Positions 255-60,179 of a DNA stretch of 64,000 nt are shown here, one piece after another. This DNA comes from a virus. The stretch lies in IMG/VR virus record IMGVR_UViG_3300025789_000822, positions 24,464 through 88,463 of that record, one strand, 5' to 3'. The translations under genes were made by a program, and so were the position numbers. Numbering within the stretch: position 1 is the first letter of the stretch; each line of letters opens with the position of its first letter. The notes below the pieces were generated by a model. That model searched no databases. It had not been told where the DNA came from and was given only the letters and a program-made list of their open reading frames with translations.

Positions 255-3200
255 TTATTTAAGACCTGCTAACTTTTTCCAATCATTGATAGAATCTTTT
301 GATTCGCTGATTTGGCGATTCAATTGACTTGCAACAACTGGAATTGTTGTTTGACCAGTAGATTTTTGTTTATTCAATCCACCAGCAATAACTTTAGTCA
401 TAAAGTCAATATCTTGTTCAAAAGTAGTATCTGATACTGACTTACCAGGACCTGCATCATTTGCCCATTCATCAAGTTTCTTGTCTTTTTTATCATCGTA
501 TTCAATTTCTTTTTTGACTTTTTTGCCTGCACGTTCTGCCTTGTTGTCATCTTTACCTTTATGACCTTCGTCATATTCGATATCTTTGGCAACTTTTTTA
601 GCAGCCTTTTCAGCTTTGTCGTCTTTCTCAGCAGTTGATTCTTTACCTTCAATCATTGCTAATTTCTTGTAAAGACTTTCAAAAGCAAAAGATTCTTCTA
701 CTGCTTCTTCTTCGTCACCGCATTCGCATGGGTCTTTATGGCATGTTGGGCAAACTTCGCTTTCTTCCATGTTCTCTTCTTCAAGAGGACCTTTTTTGTC
801 TGCGATTGCCAGTGATGTGTTAGCAGCATTATTACCTTTAGTTGCATTCATTGAGTTTGCTGAACCATTGTCTGGTGGATTATCTTCTGCAACTTCGTAT
901 GCCATTTGATCTTCTGATTCAACTTCATCAACAACTTCTTTATCGCCGTGATCGCAACCGCAAGATTCATAAGCCATACCGCATTCGTTACATGCTTCTT
1001 CATCAGTGCTTTCTTCGTCAGCATAGTCTTCTGCATCATGTGAATGACTGTGATCATCGCCACCTGACATTTTTTTCATCAATGCCATCATACCTTCATG
1101 GTCATCAACAACGTCAATTTTTGGCATTGCTGGTTCAATTTCTACTGAAGTTTCGCCAGGAATTGTTGCTGGTAGTTGTTCACCGTGACCTTCTTCGTCA
1201 CCAAAGATACCTAAACCAGCTTGTTTAATGAAAGCAAGAACTTGGTCTGCTTCGCTGTCACTAGCATTGATACTTACTGAATCAGGACTACCTTCTTGGC
1301 CTTTGCTTACTGAAACTGTTAGACCTTCGTTAATTTTAGATTTGCTTTCGTTTAACAAATTGTTTAACTCTTTATCCCATGCTTCAAATGCATATTCATC
1401 AATCTTGCTGTCATGATTACTTGTATCGGTAAATGTTTTTCCACCTACCGTAAACTTGCCACCTTTAGGTGTTTTAGCAAGTGCACCAGTAAATGCATTA
1501 CCTTCTTCAACACCATTTAATTCGTTCATTACGTTACGAACCCAAGCACTTACGTCACTTGTACCAATTTCGTCTAAGCCACTTAAGTGACCACAGCAAT
1601 TTTCAACTGCTGCCATGACTTTTTCTGGGCCATGTTTTGCTAACAAATTAGGATGTTGTCTAATGATACGATTGATAACTGCACTCTTAGCGGCTTCGCT
1701 TGAATCGTGATCTTCAGTCATACCACCTGCCATTGCTTGACTTGCCATTCCTGGAGTTGTTGCCGCTGGTTGCATGCCTTCTGTTTCCATCATACCTGCA
1801 CTACTCATGCCATAACACTCATCTAGGCCTTCTTTGTAGCCTTGATGATAAGCCATGCACTCGTCCATATCTTCATAGTTCTTACCACAATGTGGATGAC
1901 CTTTTAATCCATGTGCTTTACCTTCTAGTCTTGCTGCCATGACTTTGTGATTAGCACTTTCTTTAACTGCTTTTTTCTTTTTATCAGCGGCAGCTTTTTT
2001 CATTGATTCTTTTTTGTCGCCATCTTTGTCTAAGTCAATATAATCTGGCTTAGCTTTTTTGCCTTCATTTGTAGGTTTACCCATAGCACCTATTTGACCA
2101 CGATTATTACCCCAGAATGTTTCAGTCAACATTAACAATATTGTTCCAACCATGATTAAAAGTTCACCACCGCCACCAAAACCTGCCATACCAGTTAGTG
2201 CAGAACCACCAATTGCTTGTGCGGCGCCTGCGCCAAGACCTACTACGTGTAATAGTTGAAGCAATTTACCTTGCCAGTTGCCTGCTAAACCTTCGTTGAC
2301 TGCGGCTTGTGCTGGCGCTTGTTTACCCATTTTATCAAAGCCAAATGCTTGTGCCACTTTCAATGCATTTTCTCTGCTAGGAGTAAAATCACCACCTGTA
2401 ATTTGTTTTACTTTAGTTGCAATCTCTTGTACAGGTAAAAACTTCATTACTCTAGGTAAAATTGATTTGATCTTATCCATCATACCTTCGTCTATACGTG
2501 TCTTATGCATTGTTTTCATTTTGCTTTCAAAAGCGTTAGGATTACGGACGGCGCCTAAGTTTGCGCCTTCTGTGTCAATACCTTGAGTTGAAGCAATATC
2601 TGCCTCTTTGATTTTCTTCAATTGCGAACCTGCGATGCGTTTTGCTGCCTCTACACCATACTTAGGTGTTAGTTTACGAACCAATGCATCAAAGCCTGTT
2701 GTAGCATTGTTATGTTTGCCTATATCTTTTTCATCCAACTCTTCTTCAGACATAGGTTGTGTTGTACCTTGTTGAGTTTGTTGACCTTGTTGAGGTTGTT
2801 GTGTTTGTTGTTGACCTTGTGGAGTAACAACTGAAAGTTTCTTTTGTTGTGCTAAGTTATTGATAGTGTCATTTAAAGCCTTACCTGCAGGGCTTTGATC
2901 ATTTACTGTGATCATACCTGTAGTAGTTGCTTTGTTACTACCTTGTTGCATTACTGGAACTGGAGTAGGTGTTTCGTTGATAAGTTCTTTATCTAACTGC
3001 TCAAACCAGTCTTTTAGTGTGTGCTTTTTAGTTTTGCTTTTGTCATATGCAGGTAATTTAACATCTTTACCATGCTTAACACCAAATGCTGAGAAATCAT
3101 ATTTCTTTTCTTCACCTGTTTCAGCATCAGCATTTTTCTTAGGACGACCACGACCACGAGGTGCTGTATCTTGTTTGACTTTTTTGCCCTCTTCATCTTC

Positions 3201-3314
3201 ATCATCTTTACGACCATAACCACCTGGCTCAGCAGTGTGAATACGACCTTTACCAGTCTCTTTTGTAGCCTCTGATAACTGGCTGATCTTTTCTAACATG
3301 TCTTTGAAATTCAT
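255..3314 (-). CDS. Putative modular internal head / prohead core polyprotein
   Basis: 1019 aa, acidic/low complexity, many (I/L/V/M)-x-E junctions, AT-hook-like RGRGRPKK, EF-hand-like DLDKDGD, Cys clusters, C-terminal WKKLAGLK. Confidence 0.55.
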   Translation of the reverse strand: MNFKDMLEKISQLSEATKETGKGRIHTAEPGGYGRKDDEDEEGKKVKQDTAPRGRGRPKKNADAETGEEKKYDFSAFGVKHGKDVKLPAYDKSKTKKHTLKDWFEQLDKELINETPTPVPVMQQGSNKATTTGMITVNDQSPAGKALNDTINNLAQQKKLSVVTPQGQQQTQQPQQGQQTQQGTTQPMSEEELDEKDIGKHNNATTGFDALVRKLTPKYGVEAAKRIAGSQLKKIKEADIASTQGIDTEGANLGAVRNPNAFESKMKTMHKTRIDEGMMDKIKSILPRVMKFLPVQEIATKVKQITGGDFTPSRENALKVAQAFGFDKMGKQAPAQAAVNEGLAGNWQGKLLQLLHVVGLGAGAAQAIGGSALTGMAGFGGGGELLIMVGTILLMLTETFWGNNRGQIGAMGKPTNEGKKAKPDYIDLDKDGDKKESMKKAAADKKKKAVKESANHKVMAARLEGKAHGLKGHPHCGKNYEDMDECMAYHQGYKEGLDECYGMSSAGMMETEGMQPAATTPGMASQAMAGGMTEDHDSSEAAKSAVINRIIRQHPNLLAKHGPEKVMAAVENCCGHLSGLDEIGTSDVSAWVRNVMNELNGVEEGNAFTGALAKTPKGGKFTVGGKTFTDTSNHDSKIDEYAFEAWDKELNNLLNESKSKINEGLTVSVSKGQEGSPDSVSINASDSEADQVLAFIKQAGLGIFGDEEGHGEQLPATIPGETSVEIEPAMPKIDVVDDHEGMMALMKKMSGGDDHSHSHDAEDYADEESTDEEACNECGMAYESCGCDHGDKEVVDEVESEDQMAYEVAEDNPPDNGSANSMNATKGNNAANTSLAIADKKGPLEEENMEESEVCPTCHKDPCECGDEEEAVEESFAFESLYKKLAMIEGKESTAEKDDKAEKAAKKVAKDIEYDEGHKGKDDNKAERAGKKVKKEIEYDDKKDKKLDEWANDAGPGKSVSDTTFEQDIDFMTKVIAGGLNKQKSTGQTTIPVVASQLNRQISESKDSINDWKKLAGLK

Positions 3315-3334: not shown

Positions 3335-3955
3335 TTAAACCATTGCACCAGTCTTTGGTTTAGGTGGCATTTTAATTTTAGTCATGGGACTCATGTCACC
3401 TAATCGTTTATCGTCTAAGTATGGTTTGAATGGGTCAAATGCGTTTGGAGTTTTCTTTCCATCGTATTGATATTCAATATTTGAATCTTTTGCTTGATCC
3501 TTGATACTGTCTAAGTATGAACCAGCATATGCTTTACTTGCAGCCTTTGCGCCTGCTTCTGTTTCTTCTTCATGAGTTAGCACAGGGCTATTTTTCATTT
3601 GATTAGCATATTGTTCTGCTTCGCCATTGATACTGTCATCATATGCAGAACCAATAACTCGTACCATATTCAAGTTGTATCCTAACAACTGTGCCATTTG
3701 TTGAATCATTGGCTCTGTTGCAGGATAACGGAATTTGCACTTAAGAATAGTAATTGATTCATTGTGAAGATCAGGGAATCCATATGGATCCTTCTGAATG
3801 GGCGTGCTTGTTGGCGCTGAGATTTCTACAGGATCAAACTTGTTTAGATTATGTTTGAACATTTCCAACCAGTTTTTATCCACTTCACCAGCGATCTTAA
3901 TAGTGTAATCATATGTATGTACACTTTCAACGATATATTGTTTGAGGCTCTTCAT
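3335..3955 (-). CDS. Putative head-associated protein
   Basis: 206 aa; N-terminus MKSLKQYIVES resembles T4 capsid-targeting sequences; TAAATA upstream. Confidence 0.5.
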   Translation of the reverse strand: MKSLKQYIVESVHTYDYTIKIAGEVDKNWLEMFKHNLNKFDPVEISAPTSTPIQKDPYGFPDLHNESITILKCKFRYPATEPMIQQMAQLLGYNLNMVRVIGSAYDDSINGEAEQYANQMKNSPVLTHEEETEAGAKAASKAYAGSYLDSIKDQAKDSNIEYQYDGKKTPNAFDPFKPYLDDKRLGDMSPMTKIKMPPKPKTGAMV

Positions 3956-27915: not shown

Positions 27916-28251
27916 TTATTTGTTTAGCGCATTTTGCGCCATTTGAGCAACGACTTTCTTTTGGTCGTCAGCTTGAGCAGGTTCAGCGTTTGGTGATTCA
28001 GGCTGACCTTTGAATGTGATTTTATCACCTTGTATGTTAGTGATAACTGATTTTAGTGGGGGAACCTTAATCATGTTGTACAAGTCATTCTTGTCAAGGA
28101 TAAGGTTATATTTTTGGAAATAGTTCAATAGGTCATCTACGGAAAAATCAGGGGGAATTTCTCCCTGATCTAATCCTTGTTGTAGTTGTCGTGTTAGTGC
28201 TACAAGTTTTGTAACAGTAGCACTATCCTGATCGAACTCAAATAATCGCAT
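27916..28251 (-). CDS. Putative head-associated protein
   Basis: MRLFEF N-terminus; 111 aa. Confidence 0.5.
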   Translation of the reverse strand: MRLFEFDQDSATVTKLVALTRQLQQGLDQGEIPPDFSVDDLLNYFQKYNLILDKNDLYNMIKVPPLKSVITNIQGDKITFKGQPESPNAEPAQADDQKKVVAQMAQNALNK

Positions 28252-28253
28252 GA

Positions 28254-28946
28254 TTATCTTTTTAGTCTACCGATACTTCCGGCTGGTTCTTCTTCTTCGG
28301 GTTCTGGTGGAGTTTCTGCGGTTAAGCCTGGCTCTTCATCTGGCATTTCCATACCAAGATCAGCGCCATCTTCTTCACCTGCTGTTGGCATAGGTTCGCC
28401 AATTTCACCACCGAAGTCTGCACCGCCTTGACCAGTAATGCTATTCAATGCACTCTTTAAGCCTTGTTCGCTTTGCGTCAATGCAGCCTGCAATGAAGTC
28501 AATGCTTCATTTGCTTGACCAGTGAATTGTTCACTTTCGTTAACTCCAATTTCACTTTGGATGCTGTCAGACAATGCTGGTAGTTCTTTAACTAGCATAT
28601 CGCTAACTTGTTCAATCATTTTACGCACTGAATCAACTAAGTCTTGTGCAGCCAAAACAACTTGTGATTTTTCTACTTCTTCGTTTTCAAATACGATACG
28701 AGGACTAGGTCTACGCAATAGTTGTGCAAAATGACTTGACAATGCTTGTTCCATGAATACTAATTTCATGTATGCAGGACTGTGTTGGTTACTTGCTTGT
28801 CTTGATTCTTTGATAAGACCGTGAACTCTGTTTAACATAGTTTGGGTCTTGATCTTGTCCAAGTTTGAAACATCGAAATTAAATTCGAAATTTTGTTTCA
28901 ATGCAGTAGACGCATAATTTTTTGTTTCTAGGTCGTTTAGTCTCAT
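28254..28946 (-). CDS. Putative scaffold/core-like protein
   Basis: Helical body with acidic Pro-rich tail; late promoter. Confidence 0.5.
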   Translation of the reverse strand: MRLNDLETKNYASTALKQNFEFNFDVSNLDKIKTQTMLNRVHGLIKESRQASNQHSPAYMKLVFMEQALSSHFAQLLRRPSPRIVFENEEVEKSQVVLAAQDLVDSVRKMIEQVSDMLVKELPALSDSIQSEIGVNESEQFTGQANEALTSLQAALTQSEQGLKSALNSITGQGGADFGGEIGEPMPTAGEEDGADLGMEMPDEEPGLTAETPPEPEEEEPAGSIGRLKR

Positions 28947-30477: not shown

Positions 30478-31635
30478 TTATCTTCCGGCTAGATTTTGAC
30501 GACTAAAGCCCATTCTATCTACGAACTTAAGACCGTTTGCAACGAAACCTTCTTGAGTTTCAGTACCGTCTTGTAAGAATCCTTTAACAGGGCTAGACTT
30601 TGCTGCATGGTCTAATTGTTTCACTACATCCATTTTTAGATTATAGATAGCAACCCAAATCTTAAATGCACCCATGACACCTTGTTTGTTAACCTTAAGG
30701 TGTTCCATGATCTTTTCTTTCATCTTATCTGTCATGGGTCTTGATTCTACATATTCTATAAAACCATTGTATAGATTACTTAAGTTACCTGATACAATAC
30801 GTTTGTTAATATACGTAGTAAATAGTTGGTTGAATGTATTACGTGCTTGTGGGGCAGTATTCATTAAGTCTTTTACTGCGGCACCATATGTGTTTAGTTC
30901 TTTGATGGCAGTGTTCTTTAATTTGTCATTGATTCCCAAGTTAGGCGTGATTGGCATTTTACTTGGAATAATAGCAACATTACTATTGTTCTTTAAGTTA
31001 CCAATGCTACCGTCAAGACTTGATGCTTCATCAGTAGTAATTGCATTTGCAGGAATAAATTGGTGAACTGCAATTCCTGCATCTTTTCCAGCAATTAATT
31101 TTCCAACTTCACTGTTTGCATTTACCGCATAAGCAATACCATTTGGATTTGCTTTGAATCTATAAACGCCCTTGTCATCTTTCAATGGCTTGCTGAATAA
31201 CAAATCACCCCAGTAATAACCATTGCCACCGCGATCTGCTTGTTCTAATCCAGGCCAAATAGTAGAAATTAATCCATATAAATCGCCGCGGTTAACCCCT
31301 CTGGCTGCATCATATTGTACAAACTCTTCTGGACTGAATACTTGGCGGCCCGAACCGTCTTTCTTGTTGAACATATGTTTGTCCATGATACTAAATTTAC
31401 CATTGGGGCCACGACCAAAAATCAATGCAGGATAACCATCCCACTTAATAGTAATTGCGTTTGGATTACTTACAGTTCTTTCAATGGCATCAATTGCTTG
31501 TCTAGCACCTTCTTCATCATTCAAGAATACTAAATCCTCAGGATGGTCTAAGTGGCCTTTAGCCTCTTTAATAACTACACGGTCAATATTGTCTAATTGA
31601 CTTTTTAGTTTCGCCAATGATTCTGATAAGTTCAT
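30478..31635 (-). CDS. Nucleotidyltransferase/RNA-ligase-like protein (DUF6267-like)
   Basis: HLDHPED, KWDG (ligase motif I-like), GDLLF, EGFV, KFVDR..FS. Confidence 0.55.
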   Translation of the reverse strand: MNLSESLAKLKSQLDNIDRVVIKEAKGHLDHPEDLVFLNDEEGARQAIDAIERTVSNPNAITIKWDGYPALIFGRGPNGKFSIMDKHMFNKKDGSGRQVFSPEEFVQYDAARGVNRGDLYGLISTIWPGLEQADRGGNGYYWGDLLFSKPLKDDKGVYRFKANPNGIAYAVNANSEVGKLIAGKDAGIAVHQFIPANAITTDEASSLDGSIGNLKNNSNVAIIPSKMPITPNLGINDKLKNTAIKELNTYGAAVKDLMNTAPQARNTFNQLFTTYINKRIVSGNLSNLYNGFIEYVESRPMTDKMKEKIMEHLKVNKQGVMGAFKIWVAIYNLKMDVVKQLDHAAKSSPVKGFLQDGTETQEGFVANGLKFVDRMGFSRQNLAGR

Positions 31636-32975
31636 ACTGCTCTGCGAATCTTACGTTTTGATTCAGCTACCTTAAGATTTGGAGTTTTAGCTTGTGGTTC
31701 TGCCTGCGGATTATTTGTTGCCTGATTGCCGGCCGCTACCTTAGGAGGTTCTGCATTGGGTGCTTTTGCTACTTGCAACGATTTAACTAATTGATTATAT
31801 GCTTCAACATCAAGTTGTGACAACTGTTTTAGTTGTTTTTTAATTTCAGATGCTAATTGAAAACTATTTGACTGACCACCTGCTTGTGCTCCTGCTTGTG
31901 CTCCTGCTTGTGCACCTGTTTGAGTGGTAGACTGTGATTGAGCAGTGGGTTGTGCCTGCGTAGTTTGTTGACCTTGTTGTGTGCCAGGGGCTTGTGATTG
32001 AGATTGACCTTTGGCTGCATTTCCACCTGCTTGTTGTACCGCATAAGCAATACCAGCTAGGGTGTTCAATGCGGCTTGTGCAGACTTACCTACTTTGTTT
32101 CCGTCTTGCGCAATAGCTTTATCGAGTTGATTAATTGCATTGTTTACATCTTGTTCTTCATCTCCGTAACCAACATTGCCCATGAAGTTTTTAAACCATT
32201 CTTGCATATATTGACCAACTGTTTTACCCTCAGTGATCATACTTTCAAAAATATTGTTTAATTTCAAATACTTAGTTTCAGCAATATAATAAGTTTTTCC
32301 TTCTTTGAGAACACCTAGTCCTAATTGTTTCCATGTAATACCAACAGACTCAAGTAGTTTATTGATAAAATAGATTCTCCAGGCTTCGCTCATAGTCTGT
32401 CCTGCTTTTATACGATTAATAGCACTATTTGCAAAGTTAGGATCAGGATTACCCTTCTTGATAATCTGTTGAACTGTTGCTACACCATTTTCCCACTCAG
32501 GATATCCCTTACGATCTGCCATGTAGTTGACTAATTCTTTAGTCAAGGCCATTTTTTGATTCTTATCTTGTGTAGCATTAATTGCTTTAGCCGCACCCTG
32601 AATATATGAGTTCATATTCTGAGTAGTTTGAACTTGTTGATTATACTTGCCAACAGCCTTACTTGTATCTGGTTTAGCTTTAACTGCTGTTGGTTGAGGC
32701 GCAGTTGCCGGTGCCCCTGGTTGATTTGGTTCAGGAGTTACAGTACTAGGGTTAACTTGAGTTGCTCCGGCACCTGATGCGCCACCGGGAGTAATCAATC
32801 CACTGTTGATACCTGTATTCAATGCATTGGCTGCATTGGCTACAAAGTTTTTCATAAAGATGTCTTGGGCTCTATTTGATTGTTTTGTTTGAGGATCAGC
32901 AAATGCACCCTTAACTTTACCGGCTAGATCACCGAAAAAACCTTCTTCAATATCTTTAAATTCATTTAGTTTCAT
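31632..32975 (-). CDS. Putative internal head protein, Q/A-rich
   Basis: MKLNEF N-terminus, x-x-E junctions, low complexity. Confidence 0.5.
   Translation of the reverse strand: MKLNEFKDIEEGFFGDLAGKVKGAFADPQTKQSNRAQDIFMKNFVANAANALNTGINSGLITPGGASGAGATQVNPSTVTPEPNQPGAPATAPQPTAVKAKPDTSKAVGKYNQQVQTTQNMNSYIQGAAKAINATQDKNQKMALTKELVNYMADRKGYPEWENGVATVQQIIKKGNPDPNFANSAINRIKAGQTMSEAWRIYFINKLLESVGITWKQLGLGVLKEGKTYYIAETKYLKLNNIFESMITEGKTVGQYMQEWFKNFMGNVGYGDEEQDVNNAINQLDKAIAQDGNKVGKSAQAALNTLAGIAYAVQQAGGNAAKGQSQSQAPGTQQGQQTTQAQPTAQSQSTTQTGAQAGAQAGAQAGGQSNSFQLASEIKKQLKQLSQLDVEAYNQLVKSLQVAKAPNAEPPKVAAGNQATNNPQAEPQAKTPNLKVAESKRKIRRAV
31879..31913 (-). repeat. 12-bp coding tandem repeat x3 (AQAG)
   Basis: CCTGCTTGTGC(T) three times on the plus strand. 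Confidence 0.85.
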
Positions 32976-54509: not shown

Positions 54510-57086
54510 TTATTTACCCAATAATCGTTTTAAGTCTGCTAGTTCATCACGTTCAACTGACTCATTAGCACCAACTAATTTACCACGCAAGTTCTTTTCG
54601 TTCTTGCCTACCTTCTCAGTTGGTCCTAATTGACCTGCACGTTTCTGATTAGCATCAAGACCTTCTTGTATACCTAACAACTCCTTAGCAGCATAGTAAC
54701 CTTCGGAAGCCATTTCATTTTCATCATCACTTTCTAGACCAATTCGTTTAGCTAACTGCATAGCTTCATAAATGTCAGTGATACCTTGATGCTTTGACCA
54801 GATACAGAATGTTTGAATATCTTTATGCAAACCTCTTTCTTGTAATTCTTTATAGATTCCTCTTACATCACCGCCCGCTCGTTGAACAACGTCCTGAAAT
54901 GCTTCTGGTGTATGTGCGTCTTCCGCCACACCTAGTTTCTTATCTCTCTTTACAGCATCACTGTATGTTTTCAATACACCAGGATTCTTTTTAACAAGTT
55001 TGTTTAACGTTTTGCCACTTTCAATATCTTTTGATTTTTGAACATCTTTGGCATATTTTTTAGTTAAGTCAGGTCTTGCCTTCAACAAATCTCTTAGCAT
55101 TTTATCATATTCATCTTCTTCTAATGAGCCTTCCGCCACACCTTCTTCTCCAATTCCTATTCTGCGTTTGATTTCACGCTTCATATAGTCATTGTCTTGT
55201 TTGTTAATCTTACCTGATTTGGTAACTCTAGGTGACATTTTTCGTTGTAATGGATCGATATCAAAACTGTGATTGTCTCTTGGGAAATGCATTTTGCCTG
55301 CACCAGCTTCAACTGTGTCAGCAATCTTATCTCCAAACTCTTGTCTTATTTGAGCAATTACTTCATCACTATCCGGGTACTCATCATTAAGACCATAATA
55401 TGCTTCTGGGTCTACAGAGTCCTTATATTTGTCAATTAAATCATCTAATCTGGCACGTTGTGTGTCATCAAGACCTTCCGCTACTGCCTGAGGAACCATG
55501 TTAATGAAGTTTTCTTCCATGCCTTCTTCTTTTTCTTCGTCCATTATGCCAAATAATCCACCTAAGATTCCTTTAAATGCACGTCCATAATTTTCCATGT
55601 CATGCCCTGAGAAATCATCGCCCTTTTGTTTAGCTATTTCCTCTGCATCTTTTAATTTGCTCATCAATGCGTGTCTTTGTTCAGGCTCTAGTGTTTTTAC
55701 TTTTTGAGCAAGTTTAGGATTCTTTTTTAATAATTCATTAAATTTTGCATAGTCATCGTCTTCAGCTTCGTATACAGGATCGACTGGTCTACCATCCTTA
55801 CCCATTACTTCACCTTTGTCTAAAAGCAAACGATCTTTTTGTTGGTCGATTCTACGTTCAATTTCTTTAATCTTTTCTACGTTACCTTCTTTTTGTGCAC
55901 GTTGATAGTATTGTTCTAGTTTTTGTAATTGCGGGCTGTTATCAAATGAATCCTTAGCCAATTCATAATTAACTCCCCATAGTGATGCAATCAATGCCGC
56001 ACCACCTAAAATCTTGCCAATCATACCTTCTTCTACTTCTTCCTCTTCAGGAATAGTCTTTAGGTCTGTTGCTTCACCCATTATATTACTTGCCCATTCA
56101 CTTAATTCACTGACTTCTTTCATCTCGCCAATGTTTTTACGTAGGCGTGAAAGAATAGGCATCACGCTTTCAATACGTGGGTCAAGTGTTTCTTGTACAA
56201 ACAATTCATTTAGATTAGCTTGTTCATCACCTTCTGTTTCCATCAATGTTGGAGTATAACTTTCAAAATATGCTGTGTAACCACGATGACCAGTCATGCG
56301 GCTTAATGTTTCACGTAAACTATTGTAATGATTAATACCTTCATTAACTAATTGTTGCGCTGATTCATTGAATTGTCCGTTGCGTGTAGCACGAACGAAT
56401 CCGCCCATTTTGTTATATTCTTCGCAAATACTCTTGATGTGATTCCAACGCTCATCGTTTGGAACTCCGCCTTCTGCAATATGACGGGCATACACACGTG
56501 CAATACCAGGGCGCATAGTTGGTGCAAGAATTCTTTCACCTTGTTCGTTTTCTAAAAAGATTTTAGCAATGTTACGGAAACGTTGTTCACCTTCTTGGAT
56601 TTGTCTTGTGTGCTGTAAAATAATTTTTACGCTAGGCACTGAATCATTGTAACTAGCACTTTTACCCATTGGGTAGTAGCCTTCAGATAGTTTATCTTTC
56701 ATTTTGTGGTATTCCCTATGTCTCATATCGTCACTGATGCGGTCTGCATCACGTAATTCAAAACTTAACTGACGGCGTTGTGCCCAGTTCTTAAGCTGTT
56801 TTAGTAATCCTGTCCAAGTATCATCATAGTCTAGTCCAGGGGTCATTCCACTTGGACTATCTGATTGTTCGTTGTCATAGTATACGACTAGGTTCTGTGC
56901 ATCGTCAATGCTGACCCAGGCTTTGCCGTAATCTTCCCCGTCTTTACTAAATGTAAATTCAATAACGTCAGCGGCAGGGCTTGCTTCTACACGCTGATTT
57001 TTTGCATTTAATGGTACAGGTTTGTAACCCCTGACTTTTAACAGGTCGTATAACTTTGTGTTGAAATTTTCTGTATTTACTGCCAT
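54510..57086 (-). CDS. Putative modular internal head polyprotein
   Basis: Globular-looking N-terminal ~330 aa, then modules joined by VAE(G/D)/xEE; ends LKRLLGK; directly after the terminase. Confidence 0.55.
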   Translation of the reverse strand: MAVNTENFNTKLYDLLKVRGYKPVPLNAKNQRVEASPAADVIEFTFSKDGEDYGKAWVSIDDAQNLVVYYDNEQSDSPSGMTPGLDYDDTWTGLLKQLKNWAQRRQLSFELRDADRISDDMRHREYHKMKDKLSEGYYPMGKSASYNDSVPSVKIILQHTRQIQEGEQRFRNIAKIFLENEQGERILAPTMRPGIARVYARHIAEGGVPNDERWNHIKSICEEYNKMGGFVRATRNGQFNESAQQLVNEGINHYNSLRETLSRMTGHRGYTAYFESYTPTLMETEGDEQANLNELFVQETLDPRIESVMPILSRLRKNIGEMKEVSELSEWASNIMGEATDLKTIPEEEEVEEGMIGKILGGAALIASLWGVNYELAKDSFDNSPQLQKLEQYYQRAQKEGNVEKIKEIERRIDQQKDRLLLDKGEVMGKDGRPVDPVYEAEDDDYAKFNELLKKNPKLAQKVKTLEPEQRHALMSKLKDAEEIAKQKGDDFSGHDMENYGRAFKGILGGLFGIMDEEKEEGMEENFINMVPQAVAEGLDDTQRARLDDLIDKYKDSVDPEAYYGLNDEYPDSDEVIAQIRQEFGDKIADTVEAGAGKMHFPRDNHSFDIDPLQRKMSPRVTKSGKINKQDNDYMKREIKRRIGIGEEGVAEGSLEEDEYDKMLRDLLKARPDLTKKYAKDVQKSKDIESGKTLNKLVKKNPGVLKTYSDAVKRDKKLGVAEDAHTPEAFQDVVQRAGGDVRGIYKELQERGLHKDIQTFCIWSKHQGITDIYEAMQLAKRIGLESDDENEMASEGYYAAKELLGIQEGLDANQKRAGQLGPTEKVGKNEKNLRGKLVGANESVERDELADLKRLLGK
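54653..55478. repeat. Nested exact direct repeats at module junctions
   Basis: CATCAAGACCTTC at 54653-54665 and 55466-55478; CTTCCGCCACACCT at 54920-54933 and 55130-55143. Confidence 0.8.
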
Positions 57087-57106
57087 AAGTATATTTAGTC
57101 CAATCC

Positions 57107-58654
57107 TTACCCTAAGACGGCAAAGAAGGGTAATGGGGCAATGATTTCTTGGTGATCTCTAATATGTGATTCTAAATCGCTGTTATAGTCACTTAGTAGT
57201 TGAAAGATTCTAACTACTAACAATGATGACATAACCAAATCGTCTGTGTCGCCGATTTTGGCAGCATAACTTCCCCCACTAGCAACAAACGCTTTTAATT
57301 CACTAATCAATGATCTACTATGTAGTGTCATCTTTTTAGATTCTAGTAGTGTCTTGAATTTAGCACAGGCTGCTAATTTAGGTTTCTGCGATGTAGTGAA
57401 GCCTTTACGCTTTTTACCGGGTTCACTAATAAAGATACCGGGAATGTTACTTTCTCCGTATTCTGCTAATGAGATTAATGCGGCTTCACCGATACTGTTG
57501 TTTTCTACAGAGTAGTAAACATTGTTAGGTTCTTTTGTTATGTCAGTAATATACTTGTTAATTTGCGCTAATAGTTTGATTTGGCTGGGGATGTCTGTTT
57601 TGTTGTGTTTCCATTCACCAATTTGCGTAGTGGTGTTTGCTTCGTAAATTTGAATGGCAGCATTGTCGCCACCGGTACCAAGACTTGGGTCTAACCCTAC
57701 TACATAGATATTCCCTTTAACTGGTTGTTTATACCAACGTACTTGCCCCATACGTGTAATAGGTTCTATGCCTTCTAGCTGAATAAGTGTGTTAGGATTG
57801 ATTAAGGTTTCGTCAGCAATAATGAATTCGCAACCAATTTCTCGATTGAAACGATCTTCACCCAACTGTGCTTTCATTTCAGCAGCCCATTTTTCATCAC
57901 GTCCCGGTTGCTCAGTCCAATATGCACGATATGCTCTGAATCCGTTTATACCTAATTCAGTTTGATTGCCATACTCATCTTCTGTTTTATTAGCACCTTT
58001 CCAAATCAATGCAAACTGGTCTTCATCACTATTTGGTGTACTTGTAATAATCGCCTTACCACCAGTTGATAGTGTTGGTGTAATAGAAGTCCAGAACTCT
58101 TGCGCAATACTAGGTCTAACAAATGCAAACTCATCAAGATACAATAATGTAATAGACATACCACGACCAGTATTTTCAGTAGTTGTCGCACTAACAATAC
58201 GACTACCGTTCTCAAAGTCTAAACTACCTTTGTTGTATGTTGTTACACCAGCTTTAATATGGTCGAGGCAGTTTTCATATGCATAACGAATACGTTGCAT
58301 AATTTCCTGAGCGCCTGTATATTTGTGTGCGGCAATTAGAATAGTACTGTCAGGGACAAACATAGCGTACCACAAAAGATATCCGGCTGCACTTGTTGAC
58401 TTACCTGACTGTCGAGGCATGAGTGAAATACTATAACGATAATTGTGATATGTGTGAATTAACTTCTCTTGGTAGGGCCAAGGATGATACAACATACTAC
58501 CCTTAGTAGGGTGTTGTATGTAAAAGAAGTTATCCATGAAATATAGATAACCTGTTTCTGGATCACAACACTTTACAAAATCATCTAATTCTTTTTGTGT
58601 TGCAAAGTGTGTTTTTGTATAAGGTGTTTTAACTAATGTGGGTGCGTTTGCCAT
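57107..58654 (-). CDS. terL: Terminase large subunit (T4 gp17-like)
   Basis: PRQSGKST, LLYLDEFAF, ITSTPN, GLDPS, DDLVM. Confidence 0.95.
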   Translation of the reverse strand: MANAPTLVKTPYTKTHFATQKELDDFVKCCDPETGYLYFMDNFFYIQHPTKGSMLYHPWPYQEKLIHTYHNYRYSISLMPRQSGKSTSAAGYLLWYAMFVPDSTILIAAHKYTGAQEIMQRIRYAYENCLDHIKAGVTTYNKGSLDFENGSRIVSATTTENTGRGMSITLLYLDEFAFVRPSIAQEFWTSITPTLSTGGKAIITSTPNSDEDQFALIWKGANKTEDEYGNQTELGINGFRAYRAYWTEQPGRDEKWAAEMKAQLGEDRFNREIGCEFIIADETLINPNTLIQLEGIEPITRMGQVRWYKQPVKGNIYVVGLDPSLGTGGDNAAIQIYEANTTTQIGEWKHNKTDIPSQIKLLAQINKYITDITKEPNNVYYSVENNSIGEAALISLAEYGESNIPGIFISEPGKKRKGFTTSQKPKLAACAKFKTLLESKKMTLHSRSLISELKAFVASGGSYAAKIGDTDDLVMSSLLVVRIFQLLSDYNSDLESHIRDHQEIIAPLPFFAVLG

Positions 58655-59777: not shown

Positions 59778-60179
59778 TTATTTTCCTGTGCGATAATTTT
59801 TCAATTTTCTGCTAGTAGTTGGACTAACTTTATGGACATCATCAGGCTCAGCACTTTTCTTACTAGGTTTTGCAAGTGTGTGATATTCACCGGGGATAGT
59901 TTTCATCGCTGCCTGAACCATATTATGTTCTTCATCTGTATATGGATGTATGCCATTGAACTTTTCTGTTGGACTAGCAACATCCATATCAACTGGTTTA
60001 GTTGATTTACCATCTGCTATGGCCATAGCCATCCACAAACGATTCATATGATAAACACGATCATATCCACCTGTATCACGTGCAATATAACTGCCTGGGC
60101 CCGGGACTACGCTTTCGTGATCCTTGTGTAAACTTGATCTAGGTGGACCAGCTTCGCTAATAAATTCACTTGCTCTCAT
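59778..60179 (-). CDS. Putative head-associated protein
   Basis: Start moved to MRASEFISE (CTS-like). Confidence 0.55.
   Translation of the reverse strand: MRASEFISEAGPPRSSLHKDHESVVPGPGSYIARDTGGYDRVYHMNRLWMAMAIADGKSTKPVDMDVASPTEKFNGIHPYTDEEHNMVQAAMKTIPGEYHTLAKPSKKSAEPDDVHKVSPTTSRKLKNYRTGK

Follow-up and report, generated by a model that had tools for sequence, protein, structure and literature searches.

A single gene with a hypervariable string of modules

How does a phage come to encode one long protein in which dissimilar modules meet at exact DNA repeats? The question is raised by an open reading frame (ORF) of 858 amino acids (aa) in a 64,000-nucleotide (nt) stretch of viral DNA, hereafter the window, which comprises bases 24464-88463 of an 88,463-bp IMG/VR viral contig (IMGVR_UViG_3300025789_000822) from an uncultured freshwater giant phage. 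CheckV completeness of the contig is 23%, indicating a phage of roughly 350-400 kb. An earlier note on this DNA had proposed that the ORF encodes a head polyprotein in which one short sequence is both a protease site and a recombination junction. The ORF and all the joints listed there (VEEG, VYEA, VAEG, VAED, and IQEG) are present. The recombination half of the proposal held, as modules are exchanged at the joints; for the protease half the support is indirect. Our best explanation, to which we give a probability of roughly 0.6, is that the protein is a late virion carrier with exchangeable cargo modules, whose joints serve both for swapping and for cutting in the prohead.

The protein consists of a conserved N-domain of ~340 aa, a hypervariable string of modules of 8-13 kDa and a conserved C-tail of ~50 aa. 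Its parts are listed below in the order of translation; an arrow marks the putative cut after Glu.

54510..57086, minus strand: ORF of the putative cassette polyprotein, a predicted late gene (ORF list, 858 aa)
56046..57086, minus strand: conserved N-domain, aa 1-347 (70-75% identity across the family)
56028..56045, minus strand: acidic spacer EEEVEE, aa 348-353, following TIPE; the first joints
55767..56027, minus strand: module M1, aa 354-440, ending in VYE↓A and containing the first of two Gly-rich hydrophobic segments (8 matches, in the closest relatives only)
55527..55766, minus strand: module M2, aa 441-520, containing the other Gly-rich hydrophobic segment (6 matches, all in the N-domain family)
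55476..55526, minus strand: conserved linker J, MEENFINMVPQAVAE, aa 521-537 (102 matches)
55466..55478, minus strand: copy of a 13-mer at the boundary of J and M3, E-GLD-D
55131..55475, minus strand: module M3, aa 538-652, exchanged recently as a cassette (132 homologues)
55130..55143, minus strand: 14-mer joint, copy 1, E-GVAE-G, at the boundary of M3 and M4
54921..55130, minus strand: module M4, aa 653-722, the cassette between the two 14-mers
54920..54933, minus strand: 14-mer joint, copy 2, L-GVAE-D, at the boundary of M4 and M5
54663..54920, minus strand: module M5, aa 723-808, ending in IQE↓G (14 homologues)
54653..54665, minus strand: copy of the 13-mer at the boundary of M5 and the C-tail, E-GLD-A
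54513..54662, minus strand: conserved C-tail, GLDANQKR...LKRLLGK, aa 809-858 (160 matches)

The joints read in the protein are VEE↓G (351), VYE↓A (438), VAE↓G (535 and 650), VAE↓D (720), and IQE↓G (806). Cutting at these joints is predicted to give fragments of 8-13 kDa, all of them acidic except M4 and the C-tail, which are basic.

The Gly-rich hydrophobic segments of M1 and M2 (window 55940-56010 and 55540-55580, minus strand) read GKILGGAALIASLWGV and FKGILGGLFGIM. They resemble glycine zippers and may insert into a membrane.

Related phages exchange modules at the joints

A word-indexed search identified more than 1748 homologues of 480-1425 aa that have the first ~340 residues in common at 50-93% identity. 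Related stretches in IMG/VR number 545, with protein lengths of 391-901 aa among the loci retrieved. The shortest forms of the family consist of the N-domain and the C-tail of ~50 aa; in longer forms, varied inserts separate these two parts. At least 31 members have EEVEE after the linker ENFI.M.PQAVAE, with the C-tail coming immediately next, an arrangement that we read as the 'empty site' for window modules M3, M4, and M5. The module that comes after linker J differs from relative to relative. The residues before the C-tail almost always follow the pattern [V/L/I/M]-x-E-[G/D], with EVEE↓G (52 times), QVEE↓D (25), EVDE↓G (11), and GVAE↓D (7).

Compared with L025, the closest relative retrieved, the window is collinear at 81-85% nt identity over positions 60489-55701 and 54665-50620. 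The only stretch that could not be aligned, window 55700-54666, lies within the 858-aa gene, and the sole match to L025 in this island is the 52-nt linker J. Homology picks up again at exactly position 54665 in four different relatives. Through ...PQAVAE, two homologues (P0001 and P0002) share 92-93% identity with the window protein, and they then continue with wholly different modules. Modules are gained, lost, or replaced exactly at the joints, and relatives are not collinear there.

Two cassettes have near-identical DNA copies in other loci, and in both cases the identity stops inside a joint. Over M3 and its linker (gene nt 1552/1567-1948), the window shares 97.7-99.0% nt identity with L019/L035 and L023/L036, the N-domains of which are only 74% identical to that of the window. 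This identity tract extends from a point shortly upstream of the ENFINM linker to GAAGAAGGTG, the edge of the first 14-mer. For M4 (window 55144..54920), the copy in L198, which sits in an unrelated 873-aa protein, is 98.2% identical, and the copies in L197 and L202 are 96.5 and 94.7% identical, respectively. In a base-by-base alignment the M4 identity extends from AAGGTGTGGCGGAAGG to GGTGTGGCGGAAG, and both outer flanks are unrelated. M4 is therefore bordered on both sides by an identical DNA element, with the breakpoints inside that element, as in a cassette system.

A HMMER search with M3-M5 against 1.84 billion representatives gave 161 hits in proteins of 80-1451 aa, in which the modules were found at every position. 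M3, M4, and M5 matched separately (query 1-~115, ~108-188, and ~180-270). About 30 of the M3 homologues stand alone, in proteins only 100-150 aa long. None of the M4 and M5 homologues has the N-domain, and VAE always stands in front of the 14 M5 homologues. Modules M3-M5 are independent units. An unbiased scan of the variable regions for DNA 15-mers with different flanks on both sides ranked the words of EEVEE, GVAE (AAGGTGTGGCGGAAG), EENFI, DVNEM, and EEVDE, in this order; the top recurring word, GAAGAAGTAGAAGAA, is that of the acidic spacer. High-identity protein matches end on the Glu of [VILM]-x-E in 14% of cases versus 2.3% for random positions, although the matches counted are not independent of one another. 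At the joints, related phages swap, add, and remove modules.

Such a mosaic might also arise as an assembly chimera, in which metagenome contigs of co-occurring phages are joined via shared repeats. The M3 tract of ~390 nt that is 98% identical in a co-occurring phage would fit this, as would the fact that Logan contigs break at the joints. A chimera is nevertheless very improbable because the same relative, L025, matches both flanks of the island at 81-85%. The joints, at 14-20 nt, are also shorter than the assembler word size, five runs (possibly the source samples) contain 98-100% of the gene's sampled words, and a 599-nt contig covers M5, M4, and both 14-mers and runs into M3 with 0 mismatches. 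The same architecture occurs in hundreds of independent contigs, and the 858-aa gene is present in many freshwater metagenome runs. On the basis of the collinear flanks, the run coverage, and the spanning contig, the chimera was rejected.

Some relatives show further rearrangements. In P0185, P0187, P0179, and P0190 the N-domain lies 300-460 residues from the N-terminus, and in P0179 it stands behind a copy of M3, indicating that the carrier domain can itself be internal. A module of ~55 aa, RPY[VI]CVH.KKG.CEV..., follows the C-tail in P0001/P0002 and comes soon after the N-domain in P0021/L033; one module can thus occupy different slots. In a sister lineage (P0049, P0021, and P0066) another recurring joint, (V/A)EQ(I/V)DE, is found between modules. 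The joint peptide is lineage-specific, with hydrophobic-x-Glu being kept.

The GVAE joint is conserved as DNA

The 14-mer AGGTGTGGCGGAAG occurs twice and exactly (54920-54933 and 55130-55143, minus strand), with no other copy in the window. In a shuffled-sequence control, 0 shuffles contained even one match. No further copies of its 13-nt core GGTGTGGCGGAAG were found in the whole 88-kb contig beyond the two 14-mer sites. The 14-mer has a GC content of 64% versus 37% for the window, in agreement with its description as a GC-rich word in AT-rich DNA.

The codons of the GVAE joint do not vary freely. In distinct contexts within the 858-aa family, six of eight GVAE joints read GGTGTGGCGGAA. GTG and GCG are rare codons in the family genes, accounting for 10% of the Val and 5% of the Ala codons, respectively, so that the expectation for the locked GVAE codons is 0.002 per site. 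A second carrier family has the same lock: 21 of its 24 distinct-context joints read GGTGTGGCGGA[AG], with the consensus CAAGGTGTGGCGGAAGGC. A scan of IMG/VR with the 17-mer CAAGGTGTGGCGGAAGG gave at least 162 matches in at least 120 stretches, at least 154 of them within ORFs of at least 150 aa and in the QGVAEG frame. At least 32 loci carry two to four copies, and 95 distinct flank contexts were counted among the matches listed. Information content around the 17-mer is zero outside about -3 to +18, which delimits a discrete element of ~18-20 nt. In a control scan with common-codon synonyms of the 17-mer, 0 multi-copy loci versus 32 were found among the matches listed, and 15 of the control matches listed were in multi-joint ORFs; only the clustering is comparable between the two scans, the absolute counts are not. 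The (Q)GVAE(G/D) joint is kept as DNA before many unrelated modules and in several unrelated carriers, indicating that it acts as a portable homology patch of ~18 nt.

A lock of this kind could in principle arise from constraints at the level of RNA or translation (a pause between domains at rare codons, for instance) or mark the target of a dedicated site-specific enzyme, with general homologous recombination playing no part. The rarity of GTG (10%) and GCG (5%) and the sharp edges of the element of about 18-20 nt are in line with this possibility, which we hold to be quite improbable: other joint types do the same job unlocked, the breakpoints of recently moved cassettes lie inside the element, and no candidate enzyme was identified, although integrases were not systematically sought.

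The second exact repeat is of a different nature. The 13-mer GAAGGTCTTGATG is present in two exact copies (54653-54665 and 55466-55478), which the earlier note had compared to a target-site duplication. This comparison is not supported. The empty sites of relatives read J-EEVEE-GLDANQKR, E-GLD is the native start of the M3 family and of the C-tail alike, and codons at the start of the C-tail vary freely, with the 13-mer found in just 2 of the 40 commonest distinct C-tail boundary sequences listed. A transposon target-site duplication was rejected on these grounds, and the 13-mer, exact as it is, is not a conserved joint either. According to the codon table, the shared peptide E-G-L-D alone gives a ~3% expectation of identical codons, which, together with the freely varying boundary codons in relatives, makes the repeat less weighty than it appears. 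The pair may be due to chance (about 3%) or may be the footprint of a crossover.

The joints resemble prohead protease sites

In phage T4, the gp21 protease cleaves after L/I-X-E, and an N-terminal leader of 10 residues loads internal proteins into the prohead (PMC9026906). The internal proteins of T-even phages are diverse, with the leader alone being conserved (PMC3012670). A protease of the matching type, Peptidase_S77, was detected at 89-99 bits in four of the five large contigs of relatives and also in Pseudomonas phage PA5oct. In a relative of 333 kb (L122) the portal, protease, scaffold, and capsid genes are in T4 order. Stand-alone M3 homologues have leaders, 10-25 residues long and terminating in [L/I/V]-x-E, that resemble the T4 capsid-targeting sequence, and the ends of these leaders align with AVAE↓G of the polyprotein. 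From these leaders and their position at the joint, together with the [V/I/L]-x-E end of every joint and the S77 protease of the relatives, we infer that the joints are probably cut.

The modules might instead remain uncut, as beads on flexible acidic linkers in a multidomain protein that serves decoration, adhesion, or core-filling, and the joints would then be conserved only as linkers and domain-shuffling sites. Several points fit: the linkers are acidic and of low complexity, cleavage is a prediction from sequence, the PA5oct homologue is a plain virion protein, and polyvalent phage proteins can be packaged unprocessed, for example the N4 virion RNA polymerase (PMC5512222). We nevertheless consider an uncut protein unlikely, as hydrophobic-x-Glu stands before the C-tail in nearly every listed string whatever the preceding module, stand-alone homologues have N-termini that look like removable leaders with the same motif at the same aligned position, and a matching protease is encoded by the lineage.

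Targeting-like leaders were also seen on other proteins. Right behind the major capsid gene of L122 (3188-4904, minus strand) lie three tandem paralogues of 187-192 aa that start with MRI(N/T)E(L/I)(L/I)(N/T)E↓S, e.g., MRINEIINE↓S, and are candidate internal proteins. The second carrier family (L123-L202, e.g., L126, L123, and L139) has an almost uniform targeting-like leader, M[KR]xx[DE][IF][IL]xE. Its modules, which include the M4 cassette in common with the window, are split by [QK]G[VM]AE[GD] (QGVAEG or GMAEG), and its C-terminus is a conserved basic Cys-rich domain ending in RRRWNC. Among the matches listed, 32 of the 51 5'-complete ORFs with the 17-mer begin with a start of the M[KR]xx[DE][IF][IL]xE type. 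On the contig itself, ~10 ORFs have T4-targeting-like leaders, such as MRASEFISE↓A, MKSLKQYIVE↓S, MRLNDLE↓T, and MKLNE↓F. They are located at:

59778-60179, minus strand: leader-bearing ORF
3335-3955, minus strand: leader-bearing ORF
28254-28946, minus strand: leader-bearing ORF
27916-28251, minus strand: leader-bearing ORF
30478-32975, minus strand: leader-bearing ORF
contig bases before the window: further leader-bearing ORFs

Window 255-3314 (minus strand) encodes a mosaic protein of 1019 aa that starts with MNFKDMLEKISQLSE↓A and has a weak AT-hook match. It probably represents a second cargo polyprotein, with a leader of the targeting type.

The N-domain has a virion-associated homologue

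A tblastn search identified a homologue of the N-domain in phage PA5oct (gp278, 29% identity). It is encoded two genes after the terminase and is annotated as virion-associated by electrospray ionization tandem mass spectrometry (ESI-MS/MS). The AlphaFold2 model of the N-domain had a pLDDT (predicted local distance difference test) score of 69.7, and a fold search with this model gave no PDB match (Foldseek E ≥0.02; VIA best Z 6.8, generic helices). ESM Atlas gave no usable lead, with HD_4-type neighbours at TM <0.5. A BFVD neighbour (E 9e-15, 18% identity) is named 'Large polyvalent protein-associated domain-containing protein'. The AlphaFold2 model of M3 has four helices (pLDDT 80) and likewise matched nothing in the PDB. 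Searches of each part against Pfam (including relaxed) and PHROGs gave nothing above threshold, and no peptidase family was found within the 858 aa by Pfam.

A model for exchangeable head cargo

The carrier-cargo explanation joins these results as follows. The conserved N-domain and C-tail frame a string of small, independently evolving modules, each with a short joint ending in [V/I/L]-x-Glu in front of it. Via the GVAE homology patch, cassettes could be swapped in frame by the recombination machinery of the phage itself, which encodes UvsX and gp32 nearby. The polyprotein would be built into the prohead, where the T4 gp21-type protease of the lineage would cut after each x-Glu and release the modules as internal head proteins. 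The freed modules would exit the head with the DNA at infection like the T4 internal proteins, with many cargoes per carrier.

A number of observations weigh against this explanation. Neither a Peptidase_S77 protease nor a gp23 major capsid gene was found on the 88-kb fragment, which is 23% complete. The start of the 858-aa protein, MAVNTENFNTKLYDLL, contains no L/I-x-E targeting leader of ~10 residues, and [VIL]-x-E occurs several times within the N-domain, presumably without being cut there. The PA5oct homologue is without modules or C-tail, and its annotation does not say whether it belongs to head or tail. No module function was recognisable by Pfam, PHROGs, or fold searches. Logan contigs of four runs showed joints with sides of 21-23 nt only and no clean recombinant molecules. 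The other joint types (GIPE, [DE]LEE, EVEE, and EVDE) vary synonymously, so that the DNA lock is special to GVAE, and this lock could stem from recent common descent of the cassettes and not from selection for recombination.

A more far-reaching version, which we put forward tentatively as the less probable side of an open choice, is that of an in-frame, integron-like cassette system of freshwater T4-type giant phages for head-delivered proteins, in which the joint of ~18 nt, CAA GGT GTG GCG GAA GGC, is selected both as recombination site and as protease cut mark. If so, co-infecting phages could trade cargo modules between any carriers, and with the six joint residues also marking the cut, one sequence would serve twice, once as DNA and once as protein.

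Comparison with known systems

The T4 internal proteins IPI, IPII, IPIII, and Alt (PMC9026906, PMC3012670) are among the nearest likenesses. They are small, diverse cargo that looks non-essential, they carry a hydrophobic-x-Glu leader where the window protein has joints, and their lineage has a gp21-family protease; the targeting and cutting signal alone is conserved while the cargo varies between phages. Unlike them, the window protein fuses many cargoes in one frame behind one carrier, the carrier is a 340-aa domain and not a leader of 10 residues, and one type of joint is conserved as DNA and marks exchange points, with cutting and ejection being putative here. Polyvalent proteins of phages and conjugative elements (Iyer et al., 2017; PMC5512222) also combine many modules in one polypeptide, encoded beside virion genes, with proposed delivery along with the DNA; they are extensively mosaic, and cassette-like recombinational variability has been suggested for them (PMC5512222). 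Their modules, however, are recognisable enzyme or anti-restriction domains, and their processing is ascribed to a metallopeptidase (MPTase) domain built into many of them, whereas the window modules have no Pfam match and no peptidase domain and their joints fit a prohead protease.

In the PeSL cassettes of T4-type phages (Arbiol et al., 2010; PMC2839356) and in integron cassettes, as here, short conserved flanking DNA directs recombination to safe places, and related phages differ by the insertion, loss, or replacement of single units. PeSLs are, in contrast, intergenic promoter-terminator elements of ~100 bp that move whole genes; the window joint is ~18 nt long, intragenic, and frame-keeping and encodes a putative cleavage site, with no dedicated integrase known. 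In phiKZ-like giants such as SPN3US (PMC5694885), head contents are cut after x-Glu by a gp21-related protease, often at multiple sites per protein, but the inner-body and ejection proteins are products of separate paralogous genes with long propeptides and not strings of unrelated exchangeable modules. No compared system joins an in-frame fusion of multiple cargoes with a codon-locked joint that doubles as putative cleavage site, and a literature search found no description of such a cassette-polyprotein system.

If the joints are cut, one short sequence would solve both the loading of multiple proteins into the head by one targeting device and their rapid, frame-safe exchange. It would also reveal a sizeable, so far unexplored reservoir of proteins that turn over fast and are probably injected: a single module has at least 130 relatives, none of known fold or function, which would be natural candidates for anti-defence or host takeover. 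T4-type capsids already serve as delivery vehicles via the targeting leader (PMC9026906), and cutting at the joints would provide a natural design rule for packaging multiple cargoes in them.

Genomic setting

The 858-aa ORF lies directly behind the terminase gene, and genes for a gp32-like single-strand DNA-binding protein and a UvsX-like recombinase are found downstream of it. The neighbouring features are:

57107-58654: large terminase, T4-type, directly upstream of the 858-aa ORF
57092..57097, minus strand: TAAATA, a word resembling the T4 late promoter, 5 nt before the ATG of the 858-aa ORF (read from the sequence)

The TAAATA word is the putative promoter of the 858-aa gene.

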